Origin: Candidatus Saccharimonadota bacterium
GTDB taxonomy: Archaea > Nanohalarchaeota > Nanosalinia > Nanosalinales > Nanosalinaceae
DNA: 32,000 nucleotides
Assembly (NCBI RefSeq): GCF_029232205.1
Contig: NZ_CP107255.1
Coordinates: 570,001-602,000 of the forward strand
Direction of reading: 5' to 3'
Position 1 is the first letter of the stretch, and the number at the start of each line of letters is the position of its first letter. A program made the position numbers and the translations under genes. The notes beneath the pieces were generated by a model. That model made no database searches. It was not told the origin of the DNA and worked only from the letters and a program-made list of their open reading frames with translations. Of this stretch, positions 1 through 32,000 are shown piece by piece.

Positions 1-88
1 GATATAGGCAGACATCTTGAAAGATTTTAAACTTATTTTTCTTGTTTGAACAGATAAGTGTATAAGCTTTCACTCCTATAGAGGAGTA

Positions 89-394
89 ATGGATGCATTC
101 GATGAAATAGAGTCGTTAGACTACTCAGCATGGGATCACGTCGTAGATTTTAATCTCAAGCTGGAGCTGGCAGATATAGAAGAGCCACAGCTTTACATTG
201 GATATCACGATGAAGAAGGCACGCCAGTACTAGACTTGATAGCTAGAGGGCCTATCAATTCGTATATCAACAGCTACAGGCTTGACGGCCTCAGTATGGA
301 GGCCTTTGAGGAGGAAGGATACAGGTCCTGGAAAGAAACTTTTGAGGACATGTATGGAGAGTCAAGGCCTCTGGAAGATTTTTTCGAAGAATAG
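89..394 (+). CDS. hypothetical small acidic protein (101 aa)
   Basis: ATG ORF preceded by TATA-like tataag (61-66) and a purine-rich gaggag (81-86). Strongly acidic composition like its neighbours. No recognisable motif. Confidence 0.55.
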   Translation: MDAFDEIESLDYSAWDHVVDFNLKLELADIEEPQLYIGYHDEEGTPVLDLIARGPINSYINSYRLDGLSMEAFEEEGYRSWKETFEDMYGESRPLEDFFEE

Positions 395-437
395 TTATTG
401 CATGTGAGGTCTTGTGTTATACCTTTTCTAGGAGTTC

Positions 438-1526
438 TTATTTTTCTGTACTGAAGCTGTATTCTCCTTTCAGGAACGGTATTCTGTTTTCCATTGTTTT
501 CTTGAATCGCTGGCCCTGTAGGCCTTCTAATTCTTGCATTTCTTCTCTAAATCCGTTGAGTTGTTCGGCTATTTTATCGCCGGCGTTTTCCTGGTACTGG
601 GAGAATTCGTTGTAGCTGGCTCTTGTGTTTGAGAGATGGTTTTCGAATCCTTCCTGAAAACGGCCTTTCATGAAGTATGTTACGGCCTGTGCCATTGTTT
701 CATCTCTGACATCAAAGTCTTCTAGTCCAAAGATATCAGTCATAAGGCCTGCTGCGTATTCGAATTCCTGTACATACTGATGGAGATCTACTTCGTGTCT
801 TCTGTTTTCGTGGTATGCGTCAAGTATTCCTGCGTCGTATATTTCGTCGAGTACAAGGAGTGATAGGCCTGCTACAAGATCGTGTTTTACTTCTGGTACT
901 TCTGTATCTTCTACTATTTCCCGATATTCTTCCGGTGCATTGTAGTCGTAGATTGTGGCGAGATCTCTTACTTTATCGGCATCATCTATCAGGGCCTCTA
1001 CGTTGTTTTTGTGCATTGTTTCATGTGCTGCTGTCTCTGCTGCTGGAGTTCCTTCCGTTGCTTTCCCTGATTTTCTGTAAAGTGTTGATTTGTCTTGTTG
1101 AAATGTGTGGGTGCCGGCGTATTTTTTATCAGTATCTTCTAGTGTGGTCATTTTTGGAGGTTTTATCTTCTGGCCGGGGATGAAGCCATCGATGTACTGT
1201 GCTGCGGCTTCGTGCAGGTCGTCCAGAAATCCTTCAGGTAGCTGGCCTTTTTCCTCTACATGGCTGATGTTTTGCGTGGAGGTATGCAGCATTGCAAGTC
1301 TGTCGGTAGTGTAAGGCGCTCTCTGCATATCCTTGACTCTTTGCTGTACTGCTTCAAGCTCTTCATCTGTATGTGAGCCTCCGTTAACTTTTCTGGAAAT
1401 ATGCTTTGATTCTCTTCTTTCACGTCCGTAGAATCCTGCCGGCCTCAACTGGAACTCGTTGGCCCATCGGGATAACTCCTCTTCCAGGTCAGGTTCATCT
1501 ACTTCGAAAAACAAACTGGCCGGCAT
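438..1526 (-). CDS. hypothetical acidic protein (362 aa), no signal peptide
   Basis: Long ORF in the same orientation as the upstream LamG run. Acidic, helix-rich composition. Contains a single H-E-T-M-H string (1011-1025) that I do not trust as a metalloprotease motif. The antisense ORFs over it are low-complexity shadows. Confidence 0.7.
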   Translation of the reverse strand: MPASLFFEVDEPDLEEELSRWANEFQLRPAGFYGRERRESKHISRKVNGGSHTDEELEAVQQRVKDMQRAPYTTDRLAMLHTSTQNISHVEEKGQLPEGFLDDLHEAAAQYIDGFIPGQKIKPPKMTTLEDTDKKYAGTHTFQQDKSTLYRKSGKATEGTPAAETAAHETMHKNNVEALIDDADKVRDLATIYDYNAPEEYREIVEDTEVPEVKHDLVAGLSLLVLDEIYDAGILDAYHENRRHEVDLHQYVQEFEYAAGLMTDIFGLEDFDVRDETMAQAVTYFMKGRFQEGFENHLSNTRASYNEFSQYQENAGDKIAEQLNGFREEMQELEGLQGQRFKKTMENRIPFLKGEYSFSTEK

Positions 1527-1583
1527 AAATACAGAGTAGAAGCAAATTTTTATATCGAACCAGTAACAAAAAAGAGGAATGTT

Positions 1584-2042
1584 TCAGGAGGCCTTTCTTG
1601 GCTCTCCTGCATGTGCTGAAGGTTTCTGCACTTCTGGAACAAGTTCTTCGACAGAGTAGAGTCCTTCCTGAAGATCCATCAAGTAGTCATTCAGTTCCTG
1701 TGCTACTCCAGTTTCCGCTTCCAGCTCAAGGAATTCCTCATATGCTTCTTCTAGAGATTCGTAGTTTTCTCCCGCTTCTTCTAGGTGTTCTGCTGCTTTC
1801 TCCTCCCGGCCATTATCCAGAAGGTATAACGTATTATGTAATTCGTCAAAGAAGGCCTCTGTGGCTTCTCGAATTTCCTCTGTAGCTTCAGAGAAGTTAT
1901 TGTAGAAATCCAGTTCATTTACCTGTCTACTTGCCTCTAGAACTGTTTCATCGTACTCAACTGTTCCAGGCACCAGTTCCGGTACATAGTTCTCAAGTTC
2001 GGTGTCGTGAGTGATTCCGTCTAGTTCTTGGCCTCGTATCAC
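1584..2042 (-). CDS. hypothetical very acidic helical protein (152 aa)
   Basis: ORF with E/D/L-rich helical heptad-like sequence. Co-oriented with its neighbours and separated by short gaps. No known motif recognised. Confidence 0.65.
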   Translation of the reverse strand: MIRGQELDGITHDTELENYVPELVPGTVEYDETVLEASRQVNELDFYNNFSEATEEIREATEAFFDELHNTLYLLDNGREEKAAEHLEEAGENYESLEEAYEEFLELEAETGVAQELNDYLMDLQEGLYSVEELVPEVQKPSAHAGEPRKAS

Positions 2043-2099
2043 GTAAAGCCATAGAGTTAATGAAAGAAAAAGGTTTTGGAGGTTGTTTCAGTGGGTTTG

Positions 2100-3023
2100 T
2101 TAGGCCTCTCCATCGTATTCAGGTCTTTTTTCCTGAATAGCGTTCTGGAGGTTGTGGGCTGCAAGGCCTGATGCTTCAATAGCGTTGTCAGTTTCTTCGA
2201 GTAGTCCTCCAACTTCTCCAATGTGGTGTCTGGCTGTTCTTGCAAGTGAAGCATATTCTTTGGCTTGCTGGGCCTTTTCTGCGTATGTTAGTGGGTCTCC
2301 TGATTCTGCTCTTTCTTCTAGGCTGTCGGCCATTGCTTCGTATTCTTCTGCCCACATTGTTCCTTCCATATTTTCCTGTGCTTCTCTCTTGGATTCTGCA
2401 GCTTCCTCTACACTTTTCTGATCTGCTTCGCTGAATTTGTGCTTGGTGTGATAGTCGTTTGCTGCCTGCTTGTACTCTGTTTCTACTTCTCTAAGTTCGC
2501 TTCTTATTTCAGAAGTATCTTCCCAGTCTATTTCATCAGAAAGCTCTACTTCTACGTCGAGGCCTGATGCTGTCTCCAGCGCGTTTTTGGCTTCTTCGTA
2601 AACTTCGTCTCCGTACTGTTCTACCTCTGCGTATACATCCTGTAGATTCTCTCTGAGATCCGTTATTTTTCCGTGAATAGATTCAAATCTGTCATACTGT
2701 GTTGTTTCATCCAGTGCTGTCTCGCTGTGTGCGTCCAGAGCAATTGTTGCTCCCTGAGCAACATTTATTGCATGTTCTGCTCCATTGGAGGCATGCTCTG
2801 ATAGTATTCTTGGATCTGTTATGGTTGTTGAGTCTCTATCAAGGCTTTCAGCTTGATCGTTTAGGTTTTCTCCAGCTCTCTGAGCTGATCTGGCCTCATT
2901 TCTTATTGTTCTCCAGTACTGCTCTACATCTGCAGGATCCTGGTTTGCCGTATTATTTTCCTCGCCGTCTCCGCCGAGTAGTCCATTTAGAAGATCTCTC
3001 ATAGAATGCCATGAAACAAGCAA
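2100..3023 (-). CDS. hypothetical acidic coiled-coil-like protein (307 aa)
   Basis: Long ORF with E/A/Q-rich helical sequence, lying 34 nt downstream of the LamG gene stop. The true start may be the internal Met at 3002 (MRDLLNGLLGG...). Confidence 0.7.
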   Translation of the reverse strand: MLVSWHSMRDLLNGLLGGDGEENNTANQDPADVEQYWRTIRNEARSAQRAGENLNDQAESLDRDSTTITDPRILSEHASNGAEHAINVAQGATIALDAHSETALDETTQYDRFESIHGKITDLRENLQDVYAEVEQYGDEVYEEAKNALETASGLDVEVELSDEIDWEDTSEIRSELREVETEYKQAANDYHTKHKFSEADQKSVEEAAESKREAQENMEGTMWAEEYEAMADSLEERAESGDPLTYAEKAQQAKEYASLARTARHHIGEVGGLLEETDNAIEASGLAAHNLQNAIQEKRPEYDGEA

Positions 3024-3056
3024 TATTAAGTATGTTACTTTGAAGTTGCAACAGAT

Positions 3057-5528
3057 CTACTTGAATGCTAGCCGTGCAATCTCCTGATCTGCAAGTTTTT
3101 CATCATATATCCGGAACTCATCAATCTCCATGTTAGTGAACTTGGCCGGAGAATTGTCGCCAGCCCTACCTATCTGTATTCCTCCGCCAGAACGATCTGC
3201 ATCCGTCAAGCTGGTAGTTGAGAGATATGCTGAACCATCAAGAGATCCGTCTATAAACAGTTTGACAAGGCCTGAACTTTTTTCACGTGTGAAGGCCACG
3301 TGATGCCATCTTCCGTCAGCTACTTTTCTGTCAGAGTTTACGTACCTATCGCTGCTGCCGTTTCCATTACCGTAGACAAGTTTTCCTTCACTATCTATTC
3401 CGAATCCCCAGTCATTTGCAGGGCCTGAGTTTTCCTGATGTGCTATGGCCTTGGTCTGCCAGTGATTGGTTCCTGCCCCATCAGTAGTTTTGATCCATGC
3501 AGAAACAGTCTGGTTGTCAGGTAGTTTGTGGTCTATCTGGATGTAGTCATCGCTGCCGTCAAAACTGTATGCATTGGTGTAGAAGAGGCCTTCGCTGCCT
3601 GTTGATTTTCCAGATGTGAAATTGTATCTTTCTACGGCTCTGGCTTTCTGTGTTTCAAATGCTTTCTCTACCTCGTCCTGGCCCCACGCTGTTGTTGAGA
3701 TTGTCATTTCATCGATTTTGCCGTAGAATCTGTCTGTGTTGCCAGAGTCCGAGAGGCTGCCGATGAATGCTGGACCTGTCGTGTTTTTCATTGTGAAGTC
3801 TTTCTGAGTGCTTGTTTCCAGTGTTCCGTTCACATAGATTTTAAGAAACCCTCTGTTGGCGTCTGCTACGGCCACTACATGATACCATCTCTGCCATTCC
3901 GGGAAGCTGTAGTCTATAGCGTTGATCTGGTCGTTAGTGGTGTTTCTTACGTCGAAGGAGAATTCCTTACCGTTTCTGGGGATTCCAAACAGGTACTTAT
4001 CCCAGTCATCTCCGAAGAAGGCCTGCCAGTCATCCACTCTTTTTTCCGGATATACCCATGTAGAAATAGTGATTTCCTGGTTGTCCGCAAGTTGATCTAC
4101 CTGTCCGAGAGAAGCGTATGAGTCTCCGCTGAAGTTTAGTGCCTGGCCTGAAACTCCGTCAACCCATGAAGTGTTAGTCAGTGTGGCATCCACGTTGTTC
4201 TCTGACTGATCCTCTGTGGTTGAGCCTGCTCCATCGTTCATTCTCCACGCTGCAACTGTACCTCCCGAATGGAAATCTCCCATTAGAGGCCCTGTTGACA
4301 CCACTTCCTGCGTTGTTCCGTTCATTTTCCATCTTTCAAGATAGTTCTTCCCAATATAATCCTGTTCAGATAGTTTCTGTATATCTGTAGCTGTTAGATC
4401 CTGGTCATAGACTGTTACTTGGTCGACTGAGCCGTGGAAAAGCGGGCCTCCAATGATCATCTCGTTGTCTGCGCCGTAGATCAAGTTGTCAGAAGGGTTT
4501 ACCGATTTGTCCCCTACTTTTTCTCCGTCAAGCCAGAGCTCTGACCTGTTGTCAGAGGTGAACTGGATCACTGCATGATGCCAGCCCGTGCTTAGAGAGG
4601 CCTCAGATTCAACTCCATCCGTGAATCCCTGAAGTTTGCCATCGTAAGTTCTTAGCCCGGCCTGTCTTCCGATTCTCACTATCTGGCCGCTTTTCATGTA
4701 AAGTGCTGTACTGTAACGAGGCCTGAAGTTCCAGTAGTACGCGTTCTTGTTTCCTGCACCCTTGCTTCCGATAAGCATGTATGAGGCCCTGTAGTGGTTT
4801 GCTCTGACGAACTCTGACTTGTTTGTGACGTCTTCTCCGTTGGCGCCGTAGTCTTTCAGTGTTTCCTCCCATTCCTCCAGTACTGCTGCATCATCGCAGT
4901 TTCCTGCTGGATGAGGCTGATCATCGGTTATCATTATCATTTTCGTGCCTTCTGGCTGGCTCTGAAGATACTGCGACATGTTTCCTGCGGCATTGCAGGC
5001 ATCTCCACCATATCCGTCTCCTCCGTGAGTATCAATCTCTTTGGTCTCATTCAGGCCCCATGAGCTGTTCATTTTAGCGATTGTAAACCCTCTAGCGCAG
5101 TTGTCGCAGATCTGATTTCCGTTTATATTCATGAAGCTGTCATAGGCAGGACTGAAGTTTCCAGCTCTACCGTAGTCATTGTGGCCCATTGATCCAAGTC
5201 TGAATCTTGTATCTGAAAAATTCCTGACTTTAAACCATGTTGAAACTGCGTAACCGTTGTCTATCGAAAGATTCAGGCGGCCTGAATGATTGACAGAAAT
5301 GTAGTCATCTCTTCCATCCATTCTGAAACTTCCTCCTTTCAGCATGTTATCCTGGCCATTTTGAGAGTAGTCGAGTGTACTCATTCCTGTGCTGTCGAAA
5401 CGGTAGTAGTTCTGAAGGCCTGCAGATGCAAATGAAGCCATTAAAATTGCAAGAGCAAGGGCCACTGCAAACTTGGTGTTTCTCACATTCAGAGATGGCT
5501 TTTTATCAAATAAATTAGTTGTATTCAT
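3057..5528 (-). CDS. secreted multi-LamG (laminin-G / concanavalin-A-like lectin fold) protein, 823 aa, with nested FAM3/ILEI-like domain
   Basis: N-terminal signal/TM segment (KFAVALALAILMASFASAG). Three LamG_3-type modules, each with a W-H/Y-H-V core strand (GWHHAVIQF, RWYHVVAV, RWHHVAFT) and a terminal motif (VDQVTVYDQDLTATDIQKL; IDEMTISTTAWGQDEVEKAF; IDEFRIYDEKLADQEIARL). Many N-x-S/T sequons. Its ATG overlaps the upstream gene's TGA (ATGA at 5525-5528). Confidence 0.85.
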   Translation of the reverse strand: MNTTNLFDKKPSLNVRNTKFAVALALAILMASFASAGLQNYYRFDSTGMSTLDYSQNGQDNMLKGGSFRMDGRDDYISVNHSGRLNLSIDNGYAVSTWFKVRNFSDTRFRLGSMGHNDYGRAGNFSPAYDSFMNINGNQICDNCARGFTIAKMNSSWGLNETKEIDTHGGDGYGGDACNAAGNMSQYLQSQPEGTKMIMITDDQPHPAGNCDDAAVLEEWEETLKDYGANGEDVTNKSEFVRANHYRASYMLIGSKGAGNKNAYYWNFRPRYSTALYMKSGQIVRIGRQAGLRTYDGKLQGFTDGVESEASLSTGWHHAVIQFTSDNRSELWLDGEKVGDKSVNPSDNLIYGADNEMIIGGPLFHGSVDQVTVYDQDLTATDIQKLSEQDYIGKNYLERWKMNGTTQEVVSTGPLMGDFHSGGTVAAWRMNDGAGSTTEDQSENNVDATLTNTSWVDGVSGQALNFSGDSYASLGQVDQLADNQEITISTWVYPEKRVDDWQAFFGDDWDKYLFGIPRNGKEFSFDVRNTTNDQINAIDYSFPEWQRWYHVVAVADANRGFLKIYVNGTLETSTQKDFTMKNTTGPAFIGSLSDSGNTDRFYGKIDEMTISTTAWGQDEVEKAFETQKARAVERYNFTSGKSTGSEGLFYTNAYSFDGSDDYIQIDHKLPDNQTVSAWIKTTDGAGTNHWQTKAIAHQENSGPANDWGFGIDSEGKLVYGNGNGSSDRYVNSDRKVADGRWHHVAFTREKSSGLVKLFIDGSLDGSAYLSTTSLTDADRSGGGIQIGRAGDNSPAKFTNMEIDEFRIYDEKLADQEIARLAFK
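4749..5138 (-). other. FAM3/ILEI(PANDER)-like domain inserted in the first LamG module (residues ~131-260)
   Basis: By-eye similarity to my recollection of human FAM3B. Window: ARGFTIAKMN..IDTHGGD..TKMIMITDDQP..LKDYGA..YRASYMLIGSKG. FAM3B: ARGINIAIVN..CFDMYEGD..LLFMVTYDDGS..IEALGS..FRSSWVFIAAKG. The motif order is the same in both. Confidence 0.5.
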
Positions 5529-7264: not shown

Positions 7265-7297
7265 AGTATTGAATTGAATTAAGTTTTATTTACTATT

Positions 7298-7867
7298 TCA
7301 GTCTGTGTCAAGTTCAAGTGTTGATCGGTCTCTTATTTTCCAGTTTACTCTGTCTCCTTTTTCCAGATTCATTGCTGCTGCAAGTGTTTCAGGTATCTGG
7401 ACGTTGTGGAATCCTTTCTCTTCGGATTCCGTTATCTCTGCGTTGCCTCTGGTGTTTGCTGAGGAAGGTTTTCTCAGGCTGTAGGCATTGAGATTTTCAG
7501 TATTCATTTTCTCTGTTATTCCCTGGTTGCTGTCTGTGAACCAGATCTCTGAGTTAAGTTCCTGAAAGTCACGGAACCATTTGAGCTGTGAGTGTCGGAG
7601 GCCGTCACCTTCTCCCTTGACCTCTATGAACTTGTATTCTCCTGTATCATCGAACGCCAGAAAGTCCGGCACTCCAGGCCTGAAAACGTTTCCAAGGCCT
7701 TTCACTCCTTCTTCCTGTACTTTTCTGTTTACTGCTTCGCAGGCTCCAGGATGTTTTTCCTCGAATCTTTCGACTGCTGCTGGTGTGGCCCTGAGAAAGT
7801 TGTCCCAGTTGCTGTCGATGATGTCTTTTGCTATTTTTTCTGTGTTGGTTATTTTGTCTTCTATCAT
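7298..7867 (-). CDS. VRR-NUC (PD-(D/E)XK, FAN1-type) nuclease fused to a C-terminal AbrB/SpoVT-like domain (189 aa)
   Basis: GVPDFLAFDDTGEYKFIEVKGEGDGLRHSQLKWFRDFQEL matches the VRR-NUC signature G-x-P-D...E-V-K-G-x-x-D-x-L-x-x-x-Q-x-x-W. The C-terminal FHNVQIPETLAAAMNLEKGDRVNWKIRDRSTLELD resembles the AbrB/MazE swapped-hairpin consensus (v-x-I-P-x-x-x-x-x-x-l-x-l-x-x-G-D-x-V). Confidence 0.8.
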   Translation of the reverse strand: MIEDKITNTEKIAKDIIDSNWDNFLRATPAAVERFEEKHPGACEAVNRKVQEEGVKGLGNVFRPGVPDFLAFDDTGEYKFIEVKGEGDGLRHSQLKWFRDFQELNSEIWFTDSNQGITEKMNTENLNAYSLRKPSSANTRGNAEITESEEKGFHNVQIPETLAAAMNLEKGDRVNWKIRDRSTLELDTD

Positions 7868-7870
7868 GGT

Positions 7871-8287
7871 TCAGGACTCTAAGTAGTCAGGTAGTGTGCT
7901 TCTGGTTTCTGGATCTGCATTCGAATTCTCTGGGAGTCTGTATAGTTCTCCTGAGGCATGTTCATAGGCTGAGGCCAGTTCTGTTTCATCTACTTCGTCC
8001 ATGAGTATTCTGAATGGTGCTGAGCTGTTCCATGTTGGAAGTATTTCTGCACGGGATAGAAAGTTGACGATGTTTTCAAATTCTCCTCCTGGCATTCTCT
8101 GTGGTATCAGGCCTTTTTCCTCTACATTGCTGTAGATTTCATCTGCTTCTGGTATGTGGTAGTTTTCTGGATCTGCGTGGTATAATATGTCGACTGCTTT
8201 TCCGCCTTTGTCCTGAAACAAGGTGTAGAGGCCTGGCCATTCTTCTGCTGTTTGGTCTACGGCGGCGTGTATTTCTTCTGTATCCAC
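7871..8287 (-). CDS. hypothetical acidic protein (138 aa)
   Basis: The ORF ends 3 nt before the VRR-NUC gene start, which suggests an operon. No recognisable motif. Confidence 0.6.
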   Translation of the reverse strand: MDTEEIHAAVDQTAEEWPGLYTLFQDKGGKAVDILYHADPENYHIPEADEIYSNVEEKGLIPQRMPGGEFENIVNFLSRAEILPTWNSSAPFRILMDEVDETELASAYEHASGELYRLPENSNADPETRSTLPDYLES

Positions 8288-8321
8288 GGTTAAGAATTGG
8301 GAGAAAAATGGTAAATATCTG

Positions 8322-8642: not shown

Positions 8643-8643
8643 T

Positions 8644-24974: not shown

Positions 24975-27900
24975 TGGTACCCCACCAACTGCCAGAAGAA
25001 GCTGAAGAAGACCGGAGTCTTCCCCTCTGTCTGAGTTTCCTGATCATCGCAGCCAGTAAGCAGAGGCCCACAGTTGTCTTCAAGAGTTACTCCGATGTTT
25101 TCTCCGGAGCCCTGGCCTTTAGGATTGTAGTCAGGATGGTAAGGATTTTCGTTCTGACGCCAGTAAAATGCTATCTGTGAGGCGTTATCAGGATCTCCTC
25201 TCTGACTGCTATCAATTAGATCATGGCCATTGCCACTGCTTCTCAAGTATTCGTTTACTCTTTCGTTGTCAAGATCGTACCATTCTCCACCGACCTCTTC
25301 AACGGTACCATCGTCATCATAGTCATAGTTATCATACGTTACATCATCACCAGGATCATCGGCTGGAAGAGTCTCCTCGTAGACAATACCGTCCTGCGTA
25401 AAGCTTTCACCACTGCTATCGATCGCAAGACAGACTTCTTTATCAGGAGAATAACCTCCTTCCTCATAATCCGAGTAAGCCTCTGTACCAACGGTCCTGA
25501 CAGTTCCCTCAGGAACATCTTCTCCATACCACAGACAATCAGTAACCCTGTCAGCAGTACCTTCAAGGTGATGGCTCTTAATAGGGCCTTCATTAACTTC
25601 AGGGCCCTCCATCGCTATCCAGAACTCTTCTGTAGTATCTCCAGCACACCGCTTATCTGAACTCTGTGTAGGGCTGTCGGAGTCAGATCCATAGTTTGAA
25701 CCGATTGCTGCATCTGGATCAAGTTCCTGGAACATCTTGCAGACTCCAAGAGACTGATTGGTATCCTGAATATTGCTTTCGAAAGTTACTGCTGTGGGAT
25801 AGGCCTGGCTGCCTGCCTGATAGGAAGGATCTGTCGGGTTATCCCAGTTGTTGATATTCCGAGGCCTTATATCCAGAGCTCCTACACAGTGAGTGAAAGG
25901 ATCGCCGCAGCCATTAGTATTGATACTTACATGGCCCAGCGCATCTGCAGGCTGAACAATATCCATAGCGCCACCGCTGTTCGTCTCAGTATTCATGAAC
26001 CTGTTACTGACTCCCTGAATCTCAACCTGGCCGTTTCCAAGATAACCTCTTCTCTGCAGAATTGCCATATAACCATCGGACTGGCCCTGAGGCCCGTCAA
26101 CATCCCATGATTGGAAGTAATCTCTGACAGATTCAAATGCATCACCGTCTACCCTCATATGGTATGAGCTGGAGGAAATGGCTTCGTCATTACCTAGCAT
26201 ATTGTTATCAGTATCTACAGCATAGGCATAGTAGGAATCACCGTTGAAGGCGTTGTACTTAATATTTGAGCGGGTGTAAGCCTCATCTCCATACTTGAAA
26301 GTGTCGCCCTCAAAGAGTGCATCAGTAGGGAACATTGGTGCGTAAGAAGGATTCTCCGCAGGATTCAAATCGAATACTTTCTCAGTATGAAGCTCAAGAT
26401 CCTCGTACCGGTAGGTGATTGTGTTGCTTGTCTGGCCCGTAGCAATATCCTGATTTGAAATCGGCCCGACAGTATCAACTGAAGGACTATCACTACAGCC
26501 AATGCTACTATCGCAAGATTCTTCTTCTGTTTCACTCAGACACGAGTCGTCATCTACTTGTTCGGTCTCGTAACCTGGATGATGAGTTACTTCTACAGAT
26601 AGCTGATTTAGATTTGTACTTTCCTTACTATGTTGATGGCTTCCGCTGCTGTCTGCATAATACTGCTCGTTATCATTGGTTGAAACAGTGGTAGTTGTCT
26701 CGCTCTTTAGAGTGTATTTTGTATCAGTATCTTGATCTATACTTGTACACTTCTCGGTACCCGTACCAGAGCAGTTAGCTCCAGAACACTGATCAACAGA
26801 ACCTCCGTCCTCGCCCCAAGTCTCCACATTCTTATCACCAGTAAGATCATAGTCTGTAACTGATGCATCTGATTCCGAAGAACCGATATAAGACTCTCCA
26901 ACTTTTTCCGGATATACCATCCAAAGCTCATCAGGTACACTATCCCCGTCATCATCTTTCAGATAGTAATCAGGAACATCCTCCCATTCCTGATCCTGGA
27001 CAACCTGATCATCAACCTCACCAGCATCAGCCTGTGTGCCACTCTGAAGGTCGGCCGTGTACGGATCAGAACCACTGATATCATCTGTTTTCTGGCCCTG
27101 TGCCTCTGGGGCTATAAGTCCTGATCCGGAGTTACTAAACTTGTATTCAATAGTATCGTCAGTGTCATCGTTACTGTTCTTTGAATTTAGATATTCTCCA
27201 TTGTTTGCATTATTGTTAGAATCGCCAATAGACACACCGTTAGCATTATTGGCATCCCATTGACCAATATTACTGTTAAATCGATCAGAGAGAGTCTCTG
27301 AGGACTGGCTCTTAGTCGTTCCAGCATCGTCAGGAAGACCGTAGTCCTCAGGACAGTCAAGGTTATTCTCATCACCTCCTCTTACCGCATCACCACACTG
27401 AGAGCCATCGCCGGTAGTAGTATCATCATGTGGAGCATCAATCAACTCTGCAGAACCATCTTCTACAGCAGTAGTCGTGGAACCTGGCATGTTTCCTTCA
27501 TGACGGGACTCGCTAATACTTATTGTCTCACCTCTCAAAACCCCCGCAGCCCAGTCATTAGAACCTTCAACATAGGTCTCATTAATTTGATCAGTATCCA
27601 GAACCTGGTCAGGACTGACAGTTACAGATGAACCGTTCTGAATTACCTCTGCACCGTAGAAAATAGAGGAGTCATCTTCTGTTGGAGATGAAAGATACTG
27701 GCCGAAGACCCAGGAAGCATCCAGGTCGTAGATATTGGCCTCCGAATTATCATATTCATAAGGTGGAGAACACCCTGGATCCGGGCCGCTAGCTCCAGCC
27801 TCTTGCCAGTTAGGAGTTCCATCATTATCACTGTCAGCTCCCTCTCCATCAACCAAACCATCACCATCATTATCATTTCCATCCAAGCATGCGGAAGGTT

Positions 27901-28063
27901 GTGCAGGAGAATCTGGCGGAGAAGTGCCGGTATCCTTAGCGCCGCCAGTGAATTCATAAGAAGAAACAAGGCCAGCAGCGGTCAAGAACAAAAGGACTAC
28001 AACTAGAGCTTTTCCTACATTCATACAATTCATAGGTGAGACCCTGAATAAAAAACCTCTCAA
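24971..28063 (-). CDS. very large secreted acidic protein (up to 1030 aa) with an N-terminal Asp-rich metal-binding-type motif and a C-terminal Cys-framed module
   Basis: The maximal ORF starts at TTG 28063. The more likely start is ATG 28024 (MNVGKALVVVLLFLTAAGLVSS, a signal peptide), which has a TATA-like ttttttatt about 27 nt upstream. D/S/T/G/N-rich with scattered Cys. Stop overlaps the start of the 974-aa gene. Confidence 0.85.
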   Translation of the reverse strand: MRGFLFRVSPMNCMNVGKALVVVLLFLTAAGLVSSYEFTGGAKDTGTSPPDSPAQPSACLDGNDNDGDGLVDGEGADSDNDGTPNWQEAGASGPDPGCSPPYEYDNSEANIYDLDASWVFGQYLSSPTEDDSSIFYGAEVIQNGSSVTVSPDQVLDTDQINETYVEGSNDWAAGVLRGETISISESRHEGNMPGSTTTAVEDGSAELIDAPHDDTTTGDGSQCGDAVRGGDENNLDCPEDYGLPDDAGTTKSQSSETLSDRFNSNIGQWDANNANGVSIGDSNNNANNGEYLNSKNSNDDTDDTIEYKFSNSGSGLIAPEAQGQKTDDISGSDPYTADLQSGTQADAGEVDDQVVQDQEWEDVPDYYLKDDDGDSVPDELWMVYPEKVGESYIGSSESDASVTDYDLTGDKNVETWGEDGGSVDQCSGANCSGTGTEKCTSIDQDTDTKYTLKSETTTTVSTNDNEQYYADSSGSHQHSKESTNLNQLSVEVTHHPGYETEQVDDDSCLSETEEESCDSSIGCSDSPSVDTVGPISNQDIATGQTSNTITYRYEDLELHTEKVFDLNPAENPSYAPMFPTDALFEGDTFKYGDEAYTRSNIKYNAFNGDSYYAYAVDTDNNMLGNDEAISSSSYHMRVDGDAFESVRDYFQSWDVDGPQGQSDGYMAILQRRGYLGNGQVEIQGVSNRFMNTETNSGGAMDIVQPADALGHVSINTNGCGDPFTHCVGALDIRPRNINNWDNPTDPSYQAGSQAYPTAVTFESNIQDTNQSLGVCKMFQELDPDAAIGSNYGSDSDSPTQSSDKRCAGDTTEEFWIAMEGPEVNEGPIKSHHLEGTADRVTDCLWYGEDVPEGTVRTVGTEAYSDYEEGGYSPDKEVCLAIDSSGESFTQDGIVYEETLPADDPGDDVTYDNYDYDDDGTVEEVGGEWYDLDNERVNEYLRSSGNGHDLIDSSQRGDPDNASQIAFYWRQNENPYHPDYNPKGQGSGENIGVTLEDNCGPLLTGCDDQETQTEGKTPVFFSFFWQLVGYQ

Positions 28064-28095
28064 CTGAAAACAGCACAGCCTCTCTTAGGAGAAAG

Positions 28096-28103
28096 ATATA
28101 AAA
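28096..28103 (+). promoter_or_regulatory. TATA-like box (atataaaa) in the 75-bp divergent spacer upstream of the lipoprotein gene
   Basis: AT-rich octamer 36-45 nt upstream of the two candidate TTG starts (28139, 28148). An SD-like gaggg (28134-28138) sits 9 nt before the second TTG. Confidence 0.3.
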
Positions 28104-28138
28104 ACCTGCGTGACGTTATTTCCTAGTAACAACGAGGG

Positions 28139-28210
28139 TTGTCTATATTGAAAAGAAGAGGATTTCTAGCCGCAACAGGAACCGCAATCGCAACAGGCCT
28201 AGCCGGATGT
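28139..28210 (+). other. Tat signal peptide plus lipobox
   Basis: MSILKRRGFLAATGTAIATGLAGC contains the S/T-R-R-x-F-L consensus plus L-A-G-C, the classic haloarchaeal Tat-lipoprotein arrangement. Confidence 0.7.
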
Positions 28211-29830
28211 AGTGGTGTAACAGGAGGAAATAATAATAATAACCGCGAAGGTTCTACCAGCAAAACCAATATCTCTGTAAGTATCTCTACTGAGGCCGAA
28301 CCCTCACAGCTACCTTCTATCTGGAACGATCAGAGTATCGAAGACTTTCAGGCAGAGTTCTCCGTTGAGACCAGCGGGGGCCCAACACAGGCAACAGTCT
28401 CAAATGGAAAAGTAGAGATCAACCAGGAATCAGAGCAGTGGAACAGCAACACAGTAACAGTACAGCCAGGCCAGATGAACTCTGGAGAACAAGAATTCAC
28501 AGCAACAGCCGAGAAAAACGGAACACAGGCCCAAGATACTACAACAGCCACCAAACCAACTCCTGGCAACTACAAAGTCGACGTAGTGCCAGAGAGAAAC
28601 GAAGAACTCCGAAGCACAATCGAAAACAACTCAGACGAAGAAGATTACTTGGAGGCCCGCGGCAACTTCGTCGAACAAGACCCAGTATTCGATACTTACA
28701 GCAGCCACAAAGCCGTAGGATTCGACAAACTCGGAATCGACCTAGTCGCACGAGAATGGAGACACGACAACGACTACGAAAGCCTAGAAACTGGTAGTCC
28801 AGAAGCATCCCGAGAATTCATCCAAAGCATAGGCACCGACACCGGAAACCCTGATATACAGGCAATAAAAAACGGAAACTCAGGAACAACTTGGTACCCA
28901 AATGGCAACTTCAGCCAGAGAGACGCAGGACACTTCGACTACCAAAAATTCGCCAACGCACAAACAGTAGGAGAAGCACTCGACCAAGTGCATCCATACT
29001 ACTTCAACTGGCAATCAGACATACTCGGCAGAGAACCAACCTCCGCAGTCGACTTCATCGACGCACCAGTCCTCGAACAGGCCATCGAACAGAAAAACAA
29101 TAATGACTTGGAGGTACATGCCTGGGACTTCGACCTCGATGAACACGGAAACGGCCTCATCTACGGAAAGAACGCGGATGGCAGCGACGAACTCCGCATC
29201 ATGGAGACAGTCACCAACCCAGTAACAGCATCACCAGCAAATGTCCACGAACAACTACACCCACTAGTTGAGGACTCAAACTACCTCAACCCAGAACACG
29301 ACGAATTCAACCGGTACTGGCACCCACTCAGATTCGGATGGGAAGAACACAGCAACAGCACACGATGGAACTTCGAAGAAGAGAAACGGCGAGCAAGCCA
29401 AATGATTCAAAACATCGCCACTTCTGGACGCCTAGCCCGCACATCAGGCGAAGGCTCCGGAATGGAAACAACAGAAACAGTAGCACCAACAACAGAATAC
29501 CTCCAAGACTTCACAGAAAAACTGAGAAACTACAACCAAAACGATGCAGAATTCCAGCAACTACACAACCAAGCCAAAATAGCCAACGAACTGGTTAGAA
29601 GAGACAGTAAAGAAAATTTCGTAATCTATGGCGATACGGAGAATCCGCAGTACGCGGTAGTAGAAGATGATGAAGTTATTGAGGATATCTGGGAGGATGA
29701 GGATGGCCAGTATGATGATTTCAACCAGTTCCTCCGCGACAACCCTTCATACTCAATGAGCACAGAAGAAATCGATGCCACACTAGAAGGAGAACAAACA
29801 GAAGACCTCAGCCAGCAAACGCTGGCCTGA
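28139..29830 (+). CDS. Tat-exported lipoprotein of unknown function (563 aa)
   Basis: TTG start, or the in-frame TTG at 28148. Twin-arginine motif KRRGFLAA followed by the lipobox LAGC (Cys24). Thr/Gln/Asn-rich linker and an acidic C-terminal tail. No further Cys. Confidence 0.85.
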   Translation: MSILKRRGFLAATGTAIATGLAGCSGVTGGNNNNNREGSTSKTNISVSISTEAEPSQLPSIWNDQSIEDFQAEFSVETSGGPTQATVSNGKVEINQESEQWNSNTVTVQPGQMNSGEQEFTATAEKNGTQAQDTTTATKPTPGNYKVDVVPERNEELRSTIENNSDEEDYLEARGNFVEQDPVFDTYSSHKAVGFDKLGIDLVAREWRHDNDYESLETGSPEASREFIQSIGTDTGNPDIQAIKNGNSGTTWYPNGNFSQRDAGHFDYQKFANAQTVGEALDQVHPYYFNWQSDILGREPTSAVDFIDAPVLEQAIEQKNNNDLEVHAWDFDLDEHGNGLIYGKNADGSDELRIMETVTNPVTASPANVHEQLHPLVEDSNYLNPEHDEFNRYWHPLRFGWEEHSNSTRWNFEEEKRRASQMIQNIATSGRLARTSGEGSGMETTETVAPTTEYLQDFTEKLRNYNQNDAEFQQLHNQAKIANELVRRDSKENFVIYGDTENPQYAVVEDDEVIEDIWEDEDGQYDDFNQFLRDNPSYSMSTEEIDATLEGEQTEDLSQQTLA

Positions 29831-29855
29831 GCCCTAAAAAACTTCTGTCTCCTTC

Positions 29856-32000
29856 TTAGTTTCCGTTTTTCAGGTAGTCAGATATTTCACTGGCTCCCAT
29901 CTTGTCGAAGCTGTAGCTCAGGTTCTGCTGCCACATCTCATTCATCTTCTCGACCTGGCTGCTAATTACTCTCCGAGTGAGATCTGATTTCTCTACGTCT
30001 AGAGGGAACGAACAACCTCCACACACTGCCTGCTCATCAAACCAGGATTTCTGTATGTTGTCATTGAAAGAACCTTTTAGCAAGCTTTGCGCACGAGTCT
30101 GCGCCTTAGCTACATCATCAGTAGATCTCACATCAAGATTTCCTTCACCAGTAATTACTGCGCCGTTGGAGTTGGTAAACTCGAGGCGGCAGGAATACAC
30201 ATTGGTATTTATCTTTCCAACAAGAGGGACTGGCACCTGAGGGTTAGTTCCTACCCCAGTAACCTCCTTCGCAAACCAATCTTCCTCGCGTGTAGAAGGA
30301 TCCAGAGAAGGCCTCTCTGAAAGCTCTCCATCCCAGCATAGAGCCCTGATAGACTCTATTGTAGCAGCCTGATCATTATCAGCATCCTCCTTGGCTTCAT
30401 AATAGGTAGTAAGGAAACTGCTACTTGTTCTAAACTCATATGGCATTATGAAGAATCCTGCAGTATCAGGATTTTCGTTTCCTGTCGGTTCAAATGCGTA
30501 GGCATCAAGATCCCACTGAATATCACCAGTACACTCCCAAAACTGGCCTGTATATCCCCATTGGAGGCCTGGTTCGCAGGTTGGGTAGAATCCTCCGTCG
30601 AAGACACTGTCTCTTAGTACTGATACATCGTTTTCTTGAATGTTTTCTGCGGTTCCTAAGACTCCTGCAGTGTATTGGCCTGTTGCGTTGCTTGGGTTCC
30701 ATACTTGTCTGATTGCTGTTTCGTCGGTGTCGTCTACTGCACGTGTGTATGCTTGTCCTCTTGAGATGTTGAGTTCGTCGTATTTTGAGGCGTTGTGTGT
30801 GTAGGGTCTTTGGTATGTGTCTCCAGTTGAGCCTTCTAGGTATCTTAGTTCTGCTGCGTGGATATGGTCGAATCTTACGTTGTTGAATCCTGAGGTTGTT
30901 GCAAAGCTTGTTCCTTTGAACTCGGCATTTCCTAGAGGTATGGCTTCTTTAGGCACGTAGTACTTGACTGCTAGTGCTGTTTCTGGTGCTGAAGTGTTGT
31001 GGAATGTTCCTAACCGGCAGTCGCCATCTCCAGTACACCTTCTCTGTGGATCACCGTAGCCAGGATAAGTTCGTTGACGCATGTCGTAGAGGCATGCTGT
31101 GTCTTTCTCTGTTGTAACTGGGTCGTTGCCGGTGTAGCTGTTTTCTACAGCATCATATCCTTCACAGAGAAAGATATCGGGCTCTCCGGTACGGACACTT
31201 GAGTAGACGTTGCCATAATCACAGTCAGTGGTGGCATCCGTAAAGGCGGCTCCTGAGTTTTGATCTGCAAACACCACTTTAACGCCGTCACTTTCCCTGA
31301 TGCCTACAGTCGGATCTGCACAGTTATTTTCCACATAGGGCAACCAAGAGTTTGGTTGATTTCCTCTCCAGTCTTGCCCATTTCCTAGCACATCGCACCT
31401 GAATCGACCGTTATCTGTATCTACTATTTCTCCATCCATAGAGCCACGGCAAATATGGAACAACCTATTGCCTTTCAGTATTTCTGTATCCGGGCTGTAT
31501 GTTGAACTATCATCGTGAGCTGGCGTACAGGAGTCAAAGTTATTTTCGAAGGCCGTGCATGCGCCTTTATCCTGACCTATAACATATTCCATGTCTCCGA
31601 AGTTCTGATCCCACACATCCTGTGCACCTAGGTTATCTCCCAAGTTGTGGTTGTTTGTGAAAACTTCTGATGTAGAACCTATATCCGATAGAGAAGTAGC
31701 CTCATGACCTAGTATTTCACCTGGTTGAGGCCTATATCTTCCGTAGTCATCCTCTCCATCAGGCCAGGCTTTCCAGTCTGTCTCTTGAAGAAGTATATCT
31801 CCCTGATTTATGTCGTTTACTCCGTGAATATTGCTGTTTCCAGGACTGTTGTAGAAAGGCTCCCTATCGTTCGTTAAAATAAAGTCTCTTATTTTATTCG
31901 CATTTACGTCCATCTCAACATATAGATATGCTCCTTTATTTGCACTTACACGGTCTTTAGGCTCTACAGTTAGATCAAAGGTACCTACTGTAAAGGACTC
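29856..32000 (-). CDS. large Cys-rich extracellular-type protein, 5'-truncated by the window edge (more than 714 aa)
   Basis: The ORF track starts it at ATG 31913, but I translated 31914-32000 in the same frame and found no stop (...ESFTVGTFDLTVEPKDRVSANKGAYLYVE-MDVNANK). The listed N-terminus has no signal peptide, so the gene most likely begins beyond 32000. More than 20 Cys, acidic, N-x-S/T sequons. Confidence 0.8.
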   Translation of the reverse strand, partial: ESFTVGTFDLTVEPKDRVSANKGAYLYVEMDVNANKIRDFILTNDREPFYNSPGNSNIHGVNDINQGDILLQETDWKAWPDGEDDYGRYRPQPGEILGHEATSLSDIGSTSEVFTNNHNLGDNLGAQDVWDQNFGDMEYVIGQDKGACTAFENNFDSCTPAHDDSSTYSPDTEILKGNRLFHICRGSMDGEIVDTDNGRFRCDVLGNGQDWRGNQPNSWLPYVENNCADPTVGIRESDGVKVVFADQNSGAAFTDATTDCDYGNVYSSVRTGEPDIFLCEGYDAVENSYTGNDPVTTEKDTACLYDMRQRTYPGYGDPQRRCTGDGDCRLGTFHNTSAPETALAVKYYVPKEAIPLGNAEFKGTSFATTSGFNNVRFDHIHAAELRYLEGSTGDTYQRPYTHNASKYDELNISRGQAYTRAVDDTDETAIRQVWNPSNATGQYTAGVLGTAENIQENDVSVLRDSVFDGGFYPTCEPGLQWGYTGQFWECTGDIQWDLDAYAFEPTGNENPDTAGFFIMPYEFRTSSSFLTTYYEAKEDADNDQAATIESIRALCWDGELSERPSLDPSTREEDWFAKEVTGVGTNPQVPVPLVGKINTNVYSCRLEFTNSNGAVITGEGNLDVRSTDDVAKAQTRAQSLLKGSFNDNIQKSWFDEQAVCGGCSFPLDVEKSDLTRRVISSQVEKMNEMWQQNLSYSFDKMGASEISDYLKNGN

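Follow-up and report, generated by a model that had tools for sequence, protein, structure and literature searches.

A hyper-abundant AGGCCT palindrome, switched on or off by lineage, in nanohaloarchaeal DNA

Cyanobacterial genomes carry "highly iterated palindromes" (HIPs), hyper-abundant palindromic words that are unexplained there. One proposal is a ratchet in which methyl-directed biased repair or gene conversion fixes new copies; this model requires methyl-directed mismatch repair and saturates near one site per kb. The uptake words (DUS/USS) of Neisseria and Haemophilus accumulated by molecular drive, known signals of this kind being 9-12 bp long and non-palindromic, while CCWGG in E. 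coli is a target word inflated by very-short-patch (VSP) repair. In archaea, GGCC methylation is paired with T/G repair in Methanothermobacter (MthTI with Mig.Mth). The word considered here is AGGCCT, the StuI site and thus a known type II specificity, in 32,000 nt (the window) of a tiny salt-loving symbiotic archaeon of the Nanohaloarchaeota (DPANN). Like the cyanobacterial HIPs, it is a hyper-abundant palindrome; unlike the near one site per kb that the ratchet predicts, it reaches 2.2-5.4 per kb. As with HIP1, its one-base variants concentrate at the outer positions (HIP1 report: PMC4390886).

An excess of the DNA word

Exact counting of the window gives 69 copies of AGGCCT against 6.2 by mononucleotide expectation (11x), the first rank by frequency among all 4096 hexamers. 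The copies start at 300, 365, 520, 745, 865, 1589, 1853, 2102, 2164, 2560, 3268, 3586, 4019, 4598, 4719, 5416, 5618, 5756, 6385, 6644, 7113, 7183, 7218, 7256, 7676, 7695, 8109, 8229, 8657, 8744, 8987, 9570, 9592, 9999, 10108, 11163, 11838, 12008, 12548, 12887, 13056, 13447, 14546, 14768, 15543, 15706, 15779, 15850, 17473, 17515, 17575, 18166, 18427, 18899, 18974, 21012, 21524, 21644, 22114, 23876, 24203, 24241, 24962, 25801, 25862, 28195, 30309, 30565 and 31728. An earlier note on this DNA had arrived by hand at about 69 copies with 5-8 expected; each of those it cited (2102, 2164, 2560, 3268, 4719, 5618, 7113, 7218, 7256, 7676, 13056 and 15850) is in the exact list, and the pattern is, as the note said, the opposite of restriction avoidance. 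The GGCC core, which it called very frequent and did not tally, has 241 occurrences where 85.9 are expected (2.8x; z=7.9 under a 2nd-order Markov model), and AGGCC and GGCCT are the top two over-represented pentamers.

Expected counts under Markov orders 0 to 4 are 6.2, 7.5, 21.8, 41.5 and 61.9. The maximal-order model thus accounts for 62 of the 69 copies, as it would if the word were a by-product of codon usage, dipeptide content, a hidden repeat family or an assembly artefact. However, this null is conditioned on the enriched pentamers, which already carry the AGGCCT signal, and it 'predicts' about 62 because, once GGCC is given, the A flank and the T flank occur independently of each other (115x130/241). 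A synonymous-codon shuffle within each gene, which preserves all proteins and the codon usage of each gene, gives 13.5±3.3 copies in genes against 64 observed (z about 15). The earlier note had named a Markov or codon-based model predicting the count as grounds for doubt; the maximal-order Markov model does come close, whereas the codon-aware one falls far short.

Genic copies fall in all three reading frames (15/13/36), and the remaining five (300, 365, 9999, 10108 and 13056) lie in the 2353 bp outside the 24 gene calls, at the density of coding DNA; the copy at 13056..13061, for example, is located between the proteasome gene and the ORF at 13402-14532. Synonymous sites that permit the word are filled in 64 of 116 cases, against 10.9 expected from codon usage, and 15 of the 23 Arg-Pro pairs use AGGCCT even though AGG supplies only 19% of Arg codons. 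In DNA outside ORFs, pooled over 16 AGGCCT-rich loci, 63 copies stand against 2.4 expected (26x), compared with 5 against 2.25 in lineages without enrichment, where orthologues keep the residues and use other codons. Eighteen copies in the window are extended (9 TCAGGCCT and 9 AGGCCTGA), matching the earlier estimate of about 18, though the flanks hold no conservation or information past the hexamer and the copies share no repeat unit. Spacing looks random, with a coefficient of variation of 0.9-1.1.

The shuffle, the 64 of 116 filled sites and the equally enriched non-ORF DNA make the excess a property of the DNA, so that the earlier reading of a DNA word, not a peptide motif, survives a codon-aware null. 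A force on the DNA word itself fills more than half of the protein-neutral places for AGGCCT. The by-product explanation is refuted by the shuffle, the codon comparison with orthologues, the lack of common flanks and the non-ORF enrichment, and we regard it as virtually impossible.

Native, foreign and thinned segments of the window

Copies are unevenly distributed along the window: 55 in 1-19.3 kb, none in 19.3-20.5 kb, 3 in 20.5-22 kb and 11 in 22-32 kb. These figures reproduce the regional densities first obtained by hand, including the gap at 25862-28195, and, with the native rate as reference, P is about 0.001-0.003 for each of three empty stretches (18974-21012, 25862-28195 and 28195-30309). 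The native, motif-dense segment (1..18627) carries 53 copies, about 2.8 per kb, and encodes LamG surface-protein, VRR-NUC, FttA/aCPSF1, proteasome subunit, M20 peptidase, DEAD helicase and amidohydrolase genes (Pfam assignments), most of them with at least half of their possible synonymous sites filled (6/9 and 8/9 in the LamG genes at 3057-5528 and 5525-7264). It is syntenic with loci L001, L013 and L143, themselves AGGCCT-rich.

Downstream, the junction between the amidohydrolase and prolyl-tRNA synthetase (ProRS) genes, intact in five relatives (L001, L143, L154, L157 and L019), is interrupted in the window by a two-gene insertion. Its first gene, a 210-aa ORF of unassigned function (18637..19269, minus strand, 46% GC), has copies at 18899 and 18974, with 2 of 4 possible sites filled, and has no homologue among the compared loci. 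A motif-free islet follows (19270..20497, minus strand), consisting of a HEPN-like gene (19446-20471) and its flanks, with no AGGCCT and only 2 GGCC. The gene has 35.8% GC against about 46% elsewhere, fills 0 of 2 possible sites, is absent from all relatives compared and has no Pfam or NCBIfam match; the sole support for the HEPN label is an R-N-P-I-A-H (Rx4H) motif. It is a genuine foreign insertion, recently acquired, in line with the suggestion that AGGCCT marks native against foreign DNA. The native ProRS gene (20498..21976, minus strand) bears the motif again (3 copies, 3 of 4 possible sites), and at alignment columns 327 and 447 the word also occurs in the AGGCCT-rich L001, L007 and L011.

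The last segment (22050..31913) holds 11 copies and four large ORFs (974, 1030, 563 and 685 aa) with no family matches, previously termed a surface-protein cluster in which the motif was thinned. Copies are indeed fewer, but the fill rate, 11/25 (44%) against 53/91 (58%), is not significantly lower (z about -1.3). The thinning is explained mainly by fewer writable positions, with 25 possible sites (2.6 per kb) here and 4.6 per kb in the DNA upstream. Distant homologues of these ORFs (29-34% identity) adjoin ProRS in L007, L011 and L017, which identifies a native, fast-evolving family as opposed to a recent import.

Lineage pattern and the pull on each position

AGGCCT is enriched 7-30x in about 20 nanohaloarchaeal loci, including the window, L001, L003, L004, L007, L010, L011, L013, L016, L141, L143, L147, L150, L152, L154 and L157, and stands at about 1x in L002, L005, L006, L008, L009, L012, L014, L018 (LC1Nh), L019, L149, L153 and L155. 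Relatives interspersed with the rich ones, including Ca. Nanohalobium constans LC1Nh, show no enrichment and GGCC down to 0.1x, and the FttA tree requires at least four changes of state. The trait is on in some lineages and off in others. The loci all come from one genomic neighbourhood and cover about 20-30 kb of each genome; enrichment across whole genomes is therefore an extrapolation. At the same alignment columns, AGGCCT in rich lineages faces AGGACT, AGGTCT, AGACCT or CGACCA in others. Rich genomes at 75-78% DNA identity have 33-58% of their AGGCCT sites in common, compared with 12-17% for an average hexamer, and genomes at 93% identity share about 74% (34/46), compared with about 55%.

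Outside AGGCCT, GGCC is held at 0.1-0.8x in most lineages, the rich ones included, and unenriched lineages nested in AGGCCT-rich clades drop below 1x, not merely to 1x. The window's own clade has undepleted GGCC in other contexts (0.85-1.4x) and half-sites at 3x. All 4 GGCC of L151 lie in a segment found only in that locus, and each is part of an AGGCCT. The word is also hyper-abundant in L079, an unrelated Firmicutes-type prophage.

Across 16 AGGCCT-rich loci (81,000 codons), given a match at the other five bases, the motif base is present in 95%, 90%, 84%, 92% and 89% of cases at positions 2 to 6, respectively. Measured against background codon use, the odds ratios are 9.5-40 in the rich loci and 0.3-1.1 in unenriched lineages, and each alternative base is down 4- to 40-fold in the former. 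At position 4, relative to background with GGC=1, GGA stands at 0.028, GGT at 0.072 and GGG at 0.114; at position 5 the alternatives A, G and T stand at 0.026, 0.027 and 0.027. In a 4-state model, a uniform advantage S of about 2.5-3 reproduces the observed base spectrum. A per-site, hexamer-specific force (ln odds ratio 2.3-3.7) fills 55-85% of protein-permitted positions, and random subsets of the possible sites are spaced at least as evenly as the filled ones.

The earlier note had attributed the excess to VSP repair, in which a C5-methyltransferase acting on GGCC/AGGCCT, together with Vsr- or Mig-like T:G repair to C:G, inflates the target word. AGGCCT does include the HaeIII-type core, MthTI with Mig.Mth offers an archaeal precedent, and differences between strains often involve AGACCT, AGGTCT or AGGCTT. 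The inner transition neighbours are slightly below their level in unenriched lineages (1.70 vs 2.14; 1.15 vs 1.63); for AGGTCT/AGACCT, whose depletion the note had proposed to look for, the difference is only mild (1.7 against 2.1 observed/expected). However, the pull is equal at positions 2-6 and not confined to one methylatable cytosine, and transversions at positions 4 and 5 are reduced at least as strongly as the transition. Even if T-to-C correction were infinitely efficient, the motif base at position 4 could reach only 0.43-0.48, against 0.80-0.84 observed, and GGA would stay at about 0.45, against 0.04-0.10, while an enrichment of 11-30x is far above the reach of this mechanism. With a ceiling of about 45% in the 4-state model, depleted transversions and a uniform positional pull, VSP repair is refuted as the sole cause and is very improbable as the explanation, though it could be a minor contributor.

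A putative methyltransferase reader and its competitors

The account that we favour, at about an even chance, is that AGGCCT is a HIP-like word favoured site by site by a lineage-specific process, its reader probably being a StuI-type methyltransferase. Such a reader is suggested by a 6-bp palindrome of StuI specificity, on/off inheritance and the background of GGCC avoidance. The putative enzyme would be a StuI-isospecific DNA methyltransferase, either orphan or derived from a restriction-modification system, and methylated AGGCCT would escape a GGCC-directed restriction pressure acting across the phylum. A methyltransferase alone accounts for tolerance of the word, not for its enrichment. 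Fixation of new copies would then be favoured by one of two routes that sequence alone cannot tell apart: selection for a function that depends on methylation, or biased repair or gene conversion directed by methyl groups. Recently arrived DNA has yet to acquire the word. Densities of 2.2-5.4 per kb and random-like spacing are easier to reconcile with a per-site force than with selection for coverage, and the undepleted GGCC and 3x half-sites of the window's clade suggest that the specificity of the presumed reader may differ between clades. Genes for a methyltransferase, Vsr, a Mig-type glycosylase or mismatch repair are absent from the roughly 0.6 Mb of nanohaloarchaeal loci compared. Dcm-like methyltransferases are known from cultivated nanohaloarchaea, including one in Ca. 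Nanohalococcus to which no target has been assigned (PMC11001535).

The binding-site or uptake-type signatures that the earlier note held in reserve each have a low probability. AGGCCT-bearing DNA might be preferentially taken up or recombined within nanohaloarchaeal species and accumulate by molecular drive, which we consider unlikely. We know of no competence or uptake system in nanohaloarchaea, a 6-bp word gives little specificity compared with the 9-12 bp, non-palindromic signals known elsewhere, and drive alone leaves the purging of GGCC in sister lineages unaccounted for. On the other hand, drive would be expected to produce a per-site, position-uniform force without even spacing. AGGCCT is present at 2-5 per kb in every frame and in non-coding sequence and is missing from imported DNA, and DNA moves between rich and unenriched lineages (4/4 GGCC of the L151-only segment are AGGCCT). 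Molecular drive has recently been proposed for HIP1 too, whose abundance correlates with genes for DNA uptake and type IV secretion and which boosts transformation (bioRxiv 10.64898/2026.06.24.733823), and VirB4/TraG-like ATPases occur in the giant surface proteins of nanohaloarchaea (PMC10266531).

Comparably doubtful is a role as a binding site for an abundant protein (a nucleoid-architectural factor, a self-DNA marker or a replication/segregation factor), with no methylation and each site beneficial. The palindrome suits a dimeric binder, all positions count equally, and sites are conserved well above background, an argument used for selection on HIP1 (PMC5861425). Yet this would need thousands of effectively selected sites in a symbiont whose genome measures about 1 Mb, there is no regular spacing within 20-30 kb, and repeated on/off switching, with GGCC purged in the unenriched lineages, is more like the behaviour of mobile restriction-modification genes than that of chromatin proteins. 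The excess in the unrelated prophage L079 likewise favours a portable enzyme over a lineage-specific architecture.

Counts, coding context and base composition of AGGCCT

AGGCCT, the 6-bp palindrome recognized by StuI, is the most frequent hexamer of the window, with 69 exact copies in 32,000 bases where base composition predicts 6.2 (11x). The earlier note had estimated approximately 69 copies by hand; the exact count agrees with it, every coordinate it quoted matches, and its regional tallies are reproduced (55 copies up to 19.3 kb, 0 in 19.3-20.5 kb and 11 in 22-32 kb). Its impression that the GGCC core is very frequent is likewise borne out, with 241 copies against 85.9 expected (2.8x). 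Among the palindromic tetramers of the window, GGCC alone lies far above expectation (GATC 1.27x, AGCT 1.05x, the rest ≤1), and AGGCC and GGCCT are the two most over-represented pentamers. The motif consists of exactly six bases. Positions flanking AGGCCT are uninformative and a longer motif was rejected; the 18 extended copies reported from the sequence were correctly counted (9 TCAGGCCT and 9 AGGCCTGA), but their flanks add no information.

Simulations under Markov models of order 0, 1, 2, 3 and 4 give 6.2, 7.5, 21.8, 41.5 and 61.9 expected copies, respectively. The maximal-order check suggested by the earlier note therefore nearly predicts the count, but the order-4 model is uninformative as a null because the pentamers on which it is built, AGGCC and GGCCT, already contain the signal; its near-match only shows that the flanking A and T occur statistically independently of each other once GGCC is fixed. 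A codon-aware null, in which synonymous codons were shuffled inside each of the 24 gene calls while proteins and per-gene codon usage were kept, does not predict the count: it gives 13.5±3.3 copies, whereas the genes hold 64. Possible sites, defined as positions where AGGCCT can be written without changing the protein, are filled by the word in 64/116 cases (10.9 expected from codon usage). Arg-Pro is encoded as AGGCCT in 15/23 cases, though AGG makes up just 19% of Arg codons, and Gly-Leu is written GGC-CTN in 49/66. Genic copies occupy all three reading frames (15/13/36), and the 5 copies found in the 2.35 kb outside gene calls give the same density as inside. Pooled over 16 AGGCCT-rich loci, DNA outside every ORF of at least 100 codons contains 63 copies against 2.4 expected. 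The claim that AGGCCT is a DNA word rather than a peptide motif is thus upheld by its presence in all frames, by its non-coding copies and by its survival of the codon-aware shuffle.

On/off distribution among lineages and avoidance of GGCC

The genomes closest to the window are Nanohaloarchaeota. The best match to its FttA, the archaeal termination factor, is 92-93% identical (93% to M3_22, CP046106), and the protein is 78% identical to FttA of Ca. Nanohalobium constans LC1Nh. The word was counted around the FttA gene in 17 genomic loci, 2 further genome loci and 26 metagenomic loci, with 10-32 kb sampled per genome, such that genome-wide enrichment is an extrapolation. Approximately 20 related loci are AGGCCT-rich (7-30x, 2.2-5.4 copies per kb). 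They include the window's clade (L001, L013, L140/L143), the clade of Nanosalina VS9-1 (NZ_CP180230; L003, L004, L141), L010, and a large clade (L007, L011, L147, L150, L152, L154, L157). M3_22 and the long contigs Ga0209946_1000004 and Ga0209965_1000008 count among the AGGCCT-rich genomes. Unenriched loci are L002, L005, L006, L008, L009, L012 (Nanosalina J07AB43, GL982576), L014, L018 (LC1Nh, CP040089), L019, L149, L153 and L155, and three loci (L017, L163, L144) are intermediate at 4-7x. On the FttA tree, every basal lineage is unenriched, further unenriched lineages are scattered between the AGGCCT-rich clades, and at least four state changes are needed. A substitute palindrome was sought in the unenriched lineages and none was found.

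AGGCCT-rich lineages fill 54-83% of their possible sites and unenriched ones 0-25%, whereas both groups offer similar numbers of possible sites per 1000 codons, so that the effect runs almost entirely through synonymous choices; any effect at the amino-acid level is small and was set aside. For the same amino acids at orthologous codons, rich lineages carry AGGCCT where unenriched ones carry AGGACT, AGGTCT, AGACCT or CGACCA.

The enrichment stands against a background of GGCC avoidance. Unenriched lineages have GGCC at 0.1-0.7x overall, with 0.4x in LC1Nh, and the tetramer is nearly eliminated in some nanohaloarchaea, namely L019 (JALDAJ010000001; 0.1x, 9 vs 79) and L153 (0.1x, 2 vs 27). This depletion in sister lineages indicates that restriction-type pressure acts on the GGCC core in this phylum. 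In most AGGCCT-rich lineages, GGCC not flanked by A and T is at 0.2-0.8x; the exception is the window's own clade, at 0.85-1.4x. The sister lineages thus show classical restriction-site avoidance, reportedly set out by Gelfand and Koonin in 1997, whereas the window fails a test for it (AGGCCT 11x, GGCC 2.8x) and reverses the sign for the AGGCCT subset of GGCC. MthTI, with Mig.Mth, is an archaeal GGCC system. Another is SuaI, an m4C restriction-modification system of Sulfolobus acidocaldarius (PMC10609329). Other tetramers are also low in particular lineages: ACGT is strongly avoided in locus L016 (1 vs 38 expected) and in LC1Nh (8 vs 82), and CTAG is low in L003, L004, L006 and L010. Such lineage-particular avoidance suggests a diverse restriction landscape.

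Two closely related loci, L151 and L153, match at 99.7% identity for 13.1 kb before they part, and both almost entirely lack GGCC. L151 has just four GGCC, all of them AGGCCT, in a 3-kb segment (13150-16337) missing from L153. An exemption of AGGCCT from the GGCC purge of L151 was considered and rejected on this ground; because the segment is missing from so similar a locus, it looks like DNA that a GGCC-purged genome received from an AGGCCT-rich lineage.

Nature of the force and candidate mechanisms

To our knowledge, no textbook mechanism other than very-short-patch (VSP) T:G repair makes a restriction-type word more frequent, and the earlier note had proposed it as one of two possible explanations. 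In E. coli, Dcm/Vsr repair is said to inflate CCWGG and deplete CTWGG (Bhagwat and McClelland in 1992, and Merkl and colleagues in the same year, reportedly). AGGCCT resembles CCWGG in being an over-represented methyltransferase-type palindrome. The Dcm/Vsr effect is modest, however, and limited to the T:G-derived transition neighbor, whereas AGGCCT is enriched 11-30x, at all tested positions, with transversions drained equally. The drain at every tested position was seen in a comparison over 81,000 codons of AGGCCT-rich lineages, in which five motif bases were fixed and the sixth was a synonymous position in a coding context. The motif base takes a share of 95% at position 2, 90% at position 3, 84% at position 4, 92% at position 5 and 89% at position 6. 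Odds ratios against background codon usage are 9.5-40 (natural logs 2.3-3.7) in AGGCCT-rich lineages, compared with 0.3-1.1 in unenriched ones. All three alternative bases are drained, transversions included: relative to background, GGA, GGT and GGG at position 4 stand at 0.028, 0.072 and 0.114 (GGC = 1), and T, A and G at position 5 at 0.027, 0.026 and 0.027. A four-state model with unlimited T-to-C correction and blocked C-to-T change brings the motif base to at most 0.43-0.48, against an observed 0.80-0.84, and leaves GGA at ∼0.45, while a uniform advantage of ∼2.5-3 for the motif base reproduces the data. Given this ceiling and the drain at all positions, VSP repair at one methylated cytosine is not the cause: the transition neighbor is not selectively lost, and the enrichment exceeds what T-to-C correction can reach. 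VSP repair could make a minor addition. No T:G mismatch endonuclease or glycosylase gene was found within the loci compared.

One-base variants at the outer positions (NGGCCT/AGGCCN) reach 2.1-2.8x in AGGCCT-rich versus 0.75-0.92x in unenriched lineages, and inner variants are at or below the level of the unenriched lineages. Spacing of the word in the 32-kb window is random (coefficient of variation 0.9-1.1). Across possible sites, the filled ones are no more evenly spaced than random subsets, by which selection for even coverage was rejected; the sites behave independently. AGGCCT-rich genomes share sites (shared/union) at 0.33-0.58, against a null of 0.12-0.17, at 75-78% DNA identity, and at 93% identity ∼0.74 of AGGCCT sites are shared versus ∼0.55 for average hexamers; with more than 50% of possible sites filled, retention of a site is not separable here from its re-creation at the same limited positions. 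The force is hexamer-specific, position-uniform, per-site and directional, with a scaled strength of ∼3, and is distinct from T:G patch repair. All resident DNA is subject to it, and lineages either have it or lack it, against the GGCC-avoidance background.

Drive by preferential uptake or recombination of word-bearing DNA fits this per-site behavior, although no machinery for it is known here. DNA uptake sequences (Neisseria DUS, Haemophilus USS) are said to accumulate by molecular drive, as reportedly argued by Maughan, Wilson and Redfield in 2010. AGGCCT is like them in its thousands of dispersed copies within genes in all frames, in a per-site drive without regular spacing, and in the lack of the word in foreign DNA. 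Unlike AGGCCT, whose information is confined to a 6-bp palindrome, DUS and USS are non-palindromic words of 9-12 bp with known competence machinery, and we know of nothing comparable to them in archaea. Drive through uptake or recombination was recently proposed for the cyanobacterial word HIP1 (bioRxiv 10.64898/2026.06.24.733823).

The closest known system is HIP1 itself (GCGATCGC), together with the 6-bp 'alternate HIPs' (GGCGCC, GCCGGC, GCsGC) (Elhai 2015, PMC4390886; Xu, Lawrence & Durand 2018, PMC5861425). Both AGGCCT and the HIPs are short GC-rich palindromes, at least 10-fold over-represented, present between genes as well as in every reading frame, and neither peptide nor RNA motifs. 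In both, sites are conserved between genomes above background, the word is missing or replaced in scattered lineages, it equals or contains a type II methyltransferase specificity, and the candidate mechanisms are selection and biased repair; one-base variants mainly at the outer positions are shared with HIP1 (PMC4390886). Four of the six defining features of HIPs were tested, and all four were found in AGGCCT (at least 10-fold excess, coding independence, site conservation and outer-position deviations). The other two features of HIPs are a cognate DNA methyltransferase that accompanies the word and is lost with it, and a periodic distribution over distances of 10-90 kb. AGGCCT differs from HIP1 in its archaeal (DPANN) host and in being a 6-mer rather than an 8-mer, and from HIPs generally in the phylum-wide avoidance of its own GGCC core. 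Its density also sets it apart: the published repair-ratchet model for HIPs saturates at ∼1 per kb, and 2-5 AGGCCT per kb without even spacing are a poor fit to it.

Full-text literature searches turned up no report linking nanohaloarchaea to an AGGCCT or GGCC word bias, and as far as the searched literature shows, AGGCCT is the first HIP-like word in Archaea. The puzzle of hyper-abundant palindromes has stood unsolved for 30 years, and work on it has dealt almost exclusively with cyanobacteria. AGGCCT provides an independent case, archaeal and with another word, in genomes of ∼1 Mb. Enriched and unenriched lineages are closely interleaved here and several are complete genomes or cultivated, which makes the question directly testable.

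The StuI specificity and the patchy distribution point to a type II-like DNA methyltransferase as the most likely reader of AGGCCT. Methylated AGGCCT would then be exempt from GGCC-directed restriction, and the word might gain its advantage in one of two ways, through selection for a function that depends on methylation or through biased repair or gene conversion directed by the methyl mark. Cultivated nanohaloarchaea encode Dcm-like enzymes, one of the two in Ca. Nanohalococcus occultus being without an assigned motif, and PacBio detects m5C poorly (PMC11001535, PMC10266531). Persistent orphan methyltransferases are common in archaea, according to a REBASE survey that covers a single nanohaloarchaeal genome (PMC10609329). 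Regular-expression scans of all nanohaloarchaeal loci compared for C5 (PCQ/ENV) and N4/N6 ((D/N/S)PP(Y/F/W)) methyltransferase motifs returned nothing credible; an SPPY in the ORF at 24971-28063 was discarded for want of family support. A search with M.HaeIII, the query sequence having been validated against PDB 3UBT, gave at least 120 matches, all close bacterial relatives among the matches listed.

AGGCCT hyper-abundance is not confined to archaea. A scan of viral contigs for dense AGGCCT yielded L079 (IMGVR_UViG_2791354938_000002, 8150-20011), with 26 dispersed copies against 2.0 expected (13-fold). This prophage is of HK97 type and encodes a terminase, portal, protease, capsid and tail tube; the capsid protein is 49% identical to that of a Flavonifractor phage, and the prophage is related to Flavonifractor and Lactobacillus phages. 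Its excess hints at a portable cause. The hit in L123 (6700-8430) was a false positive of the scan, a 73-bp tandem CRISPR-like array whose unit contains AGGCCTAGGCCT. Another viral contig, L021, carries a generic C5-methyltransferase.

A bolder reading, which we consider improbable, is that AGGCCT might serve as a methylated archaeal self-identity tag at thousands of positions, by which these nucleotide-dependent ectosymbionts would recognize kindred DNA to be taken up or recombined, or would spare their own chromosome while GGCC-directed nucleases attack host or foreign DNA. If true, it would give Archaea their first 'self' word of the uptake or Chi type and would tie the cyanobacterial HIP puzzle to a general cross-domain mechanism, because the word is also hyper-abundant in the Firmicutes-type prophage L079.

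Provenance marking and genes of the window

AGGCCT is a sharp marker of DNA provenance for nanohaloarchaeal genomes and metagenome bins. Its proposed use to separate native from acquired DNA is supported by the HEPN-like islet of the window and the segment unique to L151, both of which it flags; it also flags contigs that appear mis-binned, such as L002. This contig (JBLGBK010000008.1), deposited as part of a 'Colwellia polaris' MAG, encodes a nanohaloarchaeal FttA (81% identity) in a syntenic neighborhood and is probably mis-binned.

The window encodes FttA/aCPSF1, a proteasome subunit, an archaeal-type ProRS and LamG-domain surface proteins. AGGCCT-empty stretches are 2.0-2.3 kb long, each with P ∼0.001-0.003 at native density. 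A two-gene insertion (18627-20497) sits in an amidohydrolase-ProRS junction that is conserved elsewhere and spans only 35-120 bp in L001, L143, L154, L157 and L019. Its second gene (19446-20471) has 35.8% GC, 0 AGGCCT and 0/2 possible sites filled, and is clearly foreign DNA; the description of this islet as word-free is confirmed by these values. A family-model search with this gene gave no match, and the putative HEPN label derives from a single sequence motif, RNPIAH (Rx4H). The first gene (18637-19269) has native-like GC and two AGGCCT copies, and no homologue of it was found in any locus compared.

Four large ORFs at 22-32 kb belong to a family adjoining ProRS in other nanohaloarchaea. 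The word had been described as thinned in this surface-protein cluster, and it is indeed sparser there. However, the four ORFs contain fewer possible sites (2.6 vs 4.6 per kb upstream) and fill them at a rate that is not significantly lower (11/25 vs 53/91), so that the thinning mostly reflects protein composition rather than recent import.

Upstream of the insertion, a conserved and very acidic 376-aa protein (13402-14532) has 15 GGCC and only 1 AGGCCT in its gene, which is overlapped on the opposite strand by a 125-aa ORF (14521-14898). Among the loci compared, the pair occurs only in AGGCCT-rich ones (L001, L013, L004, L141/L142). Neither protein has a match in Pfam or NCBIfam, nor has the 376-aa protein one in the PDB, and the latter was dropped as a trait-linked candidate, the co-occurrence being probably just synteny. 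A VRR-NUC (PD-(D/E)XK nuclease) domain protein (7298-7867) adjoins the LamG genes and is missing from the syntenic L001 region. Several nanohaloarchaeal lineages have a 570-aa intein in FttA/aCPSF1, inserted after residue ∼244 and containing both a LAGLIDADG homing endonuclease and an HTH domain (Pfam Intein_splicing 1e-18, LAGLIDADG_3 5e-17). The intein lies at 7738-9447 in L017, corresponding to window position ∼11450, and is also present in L014, L157, L158 and L163.
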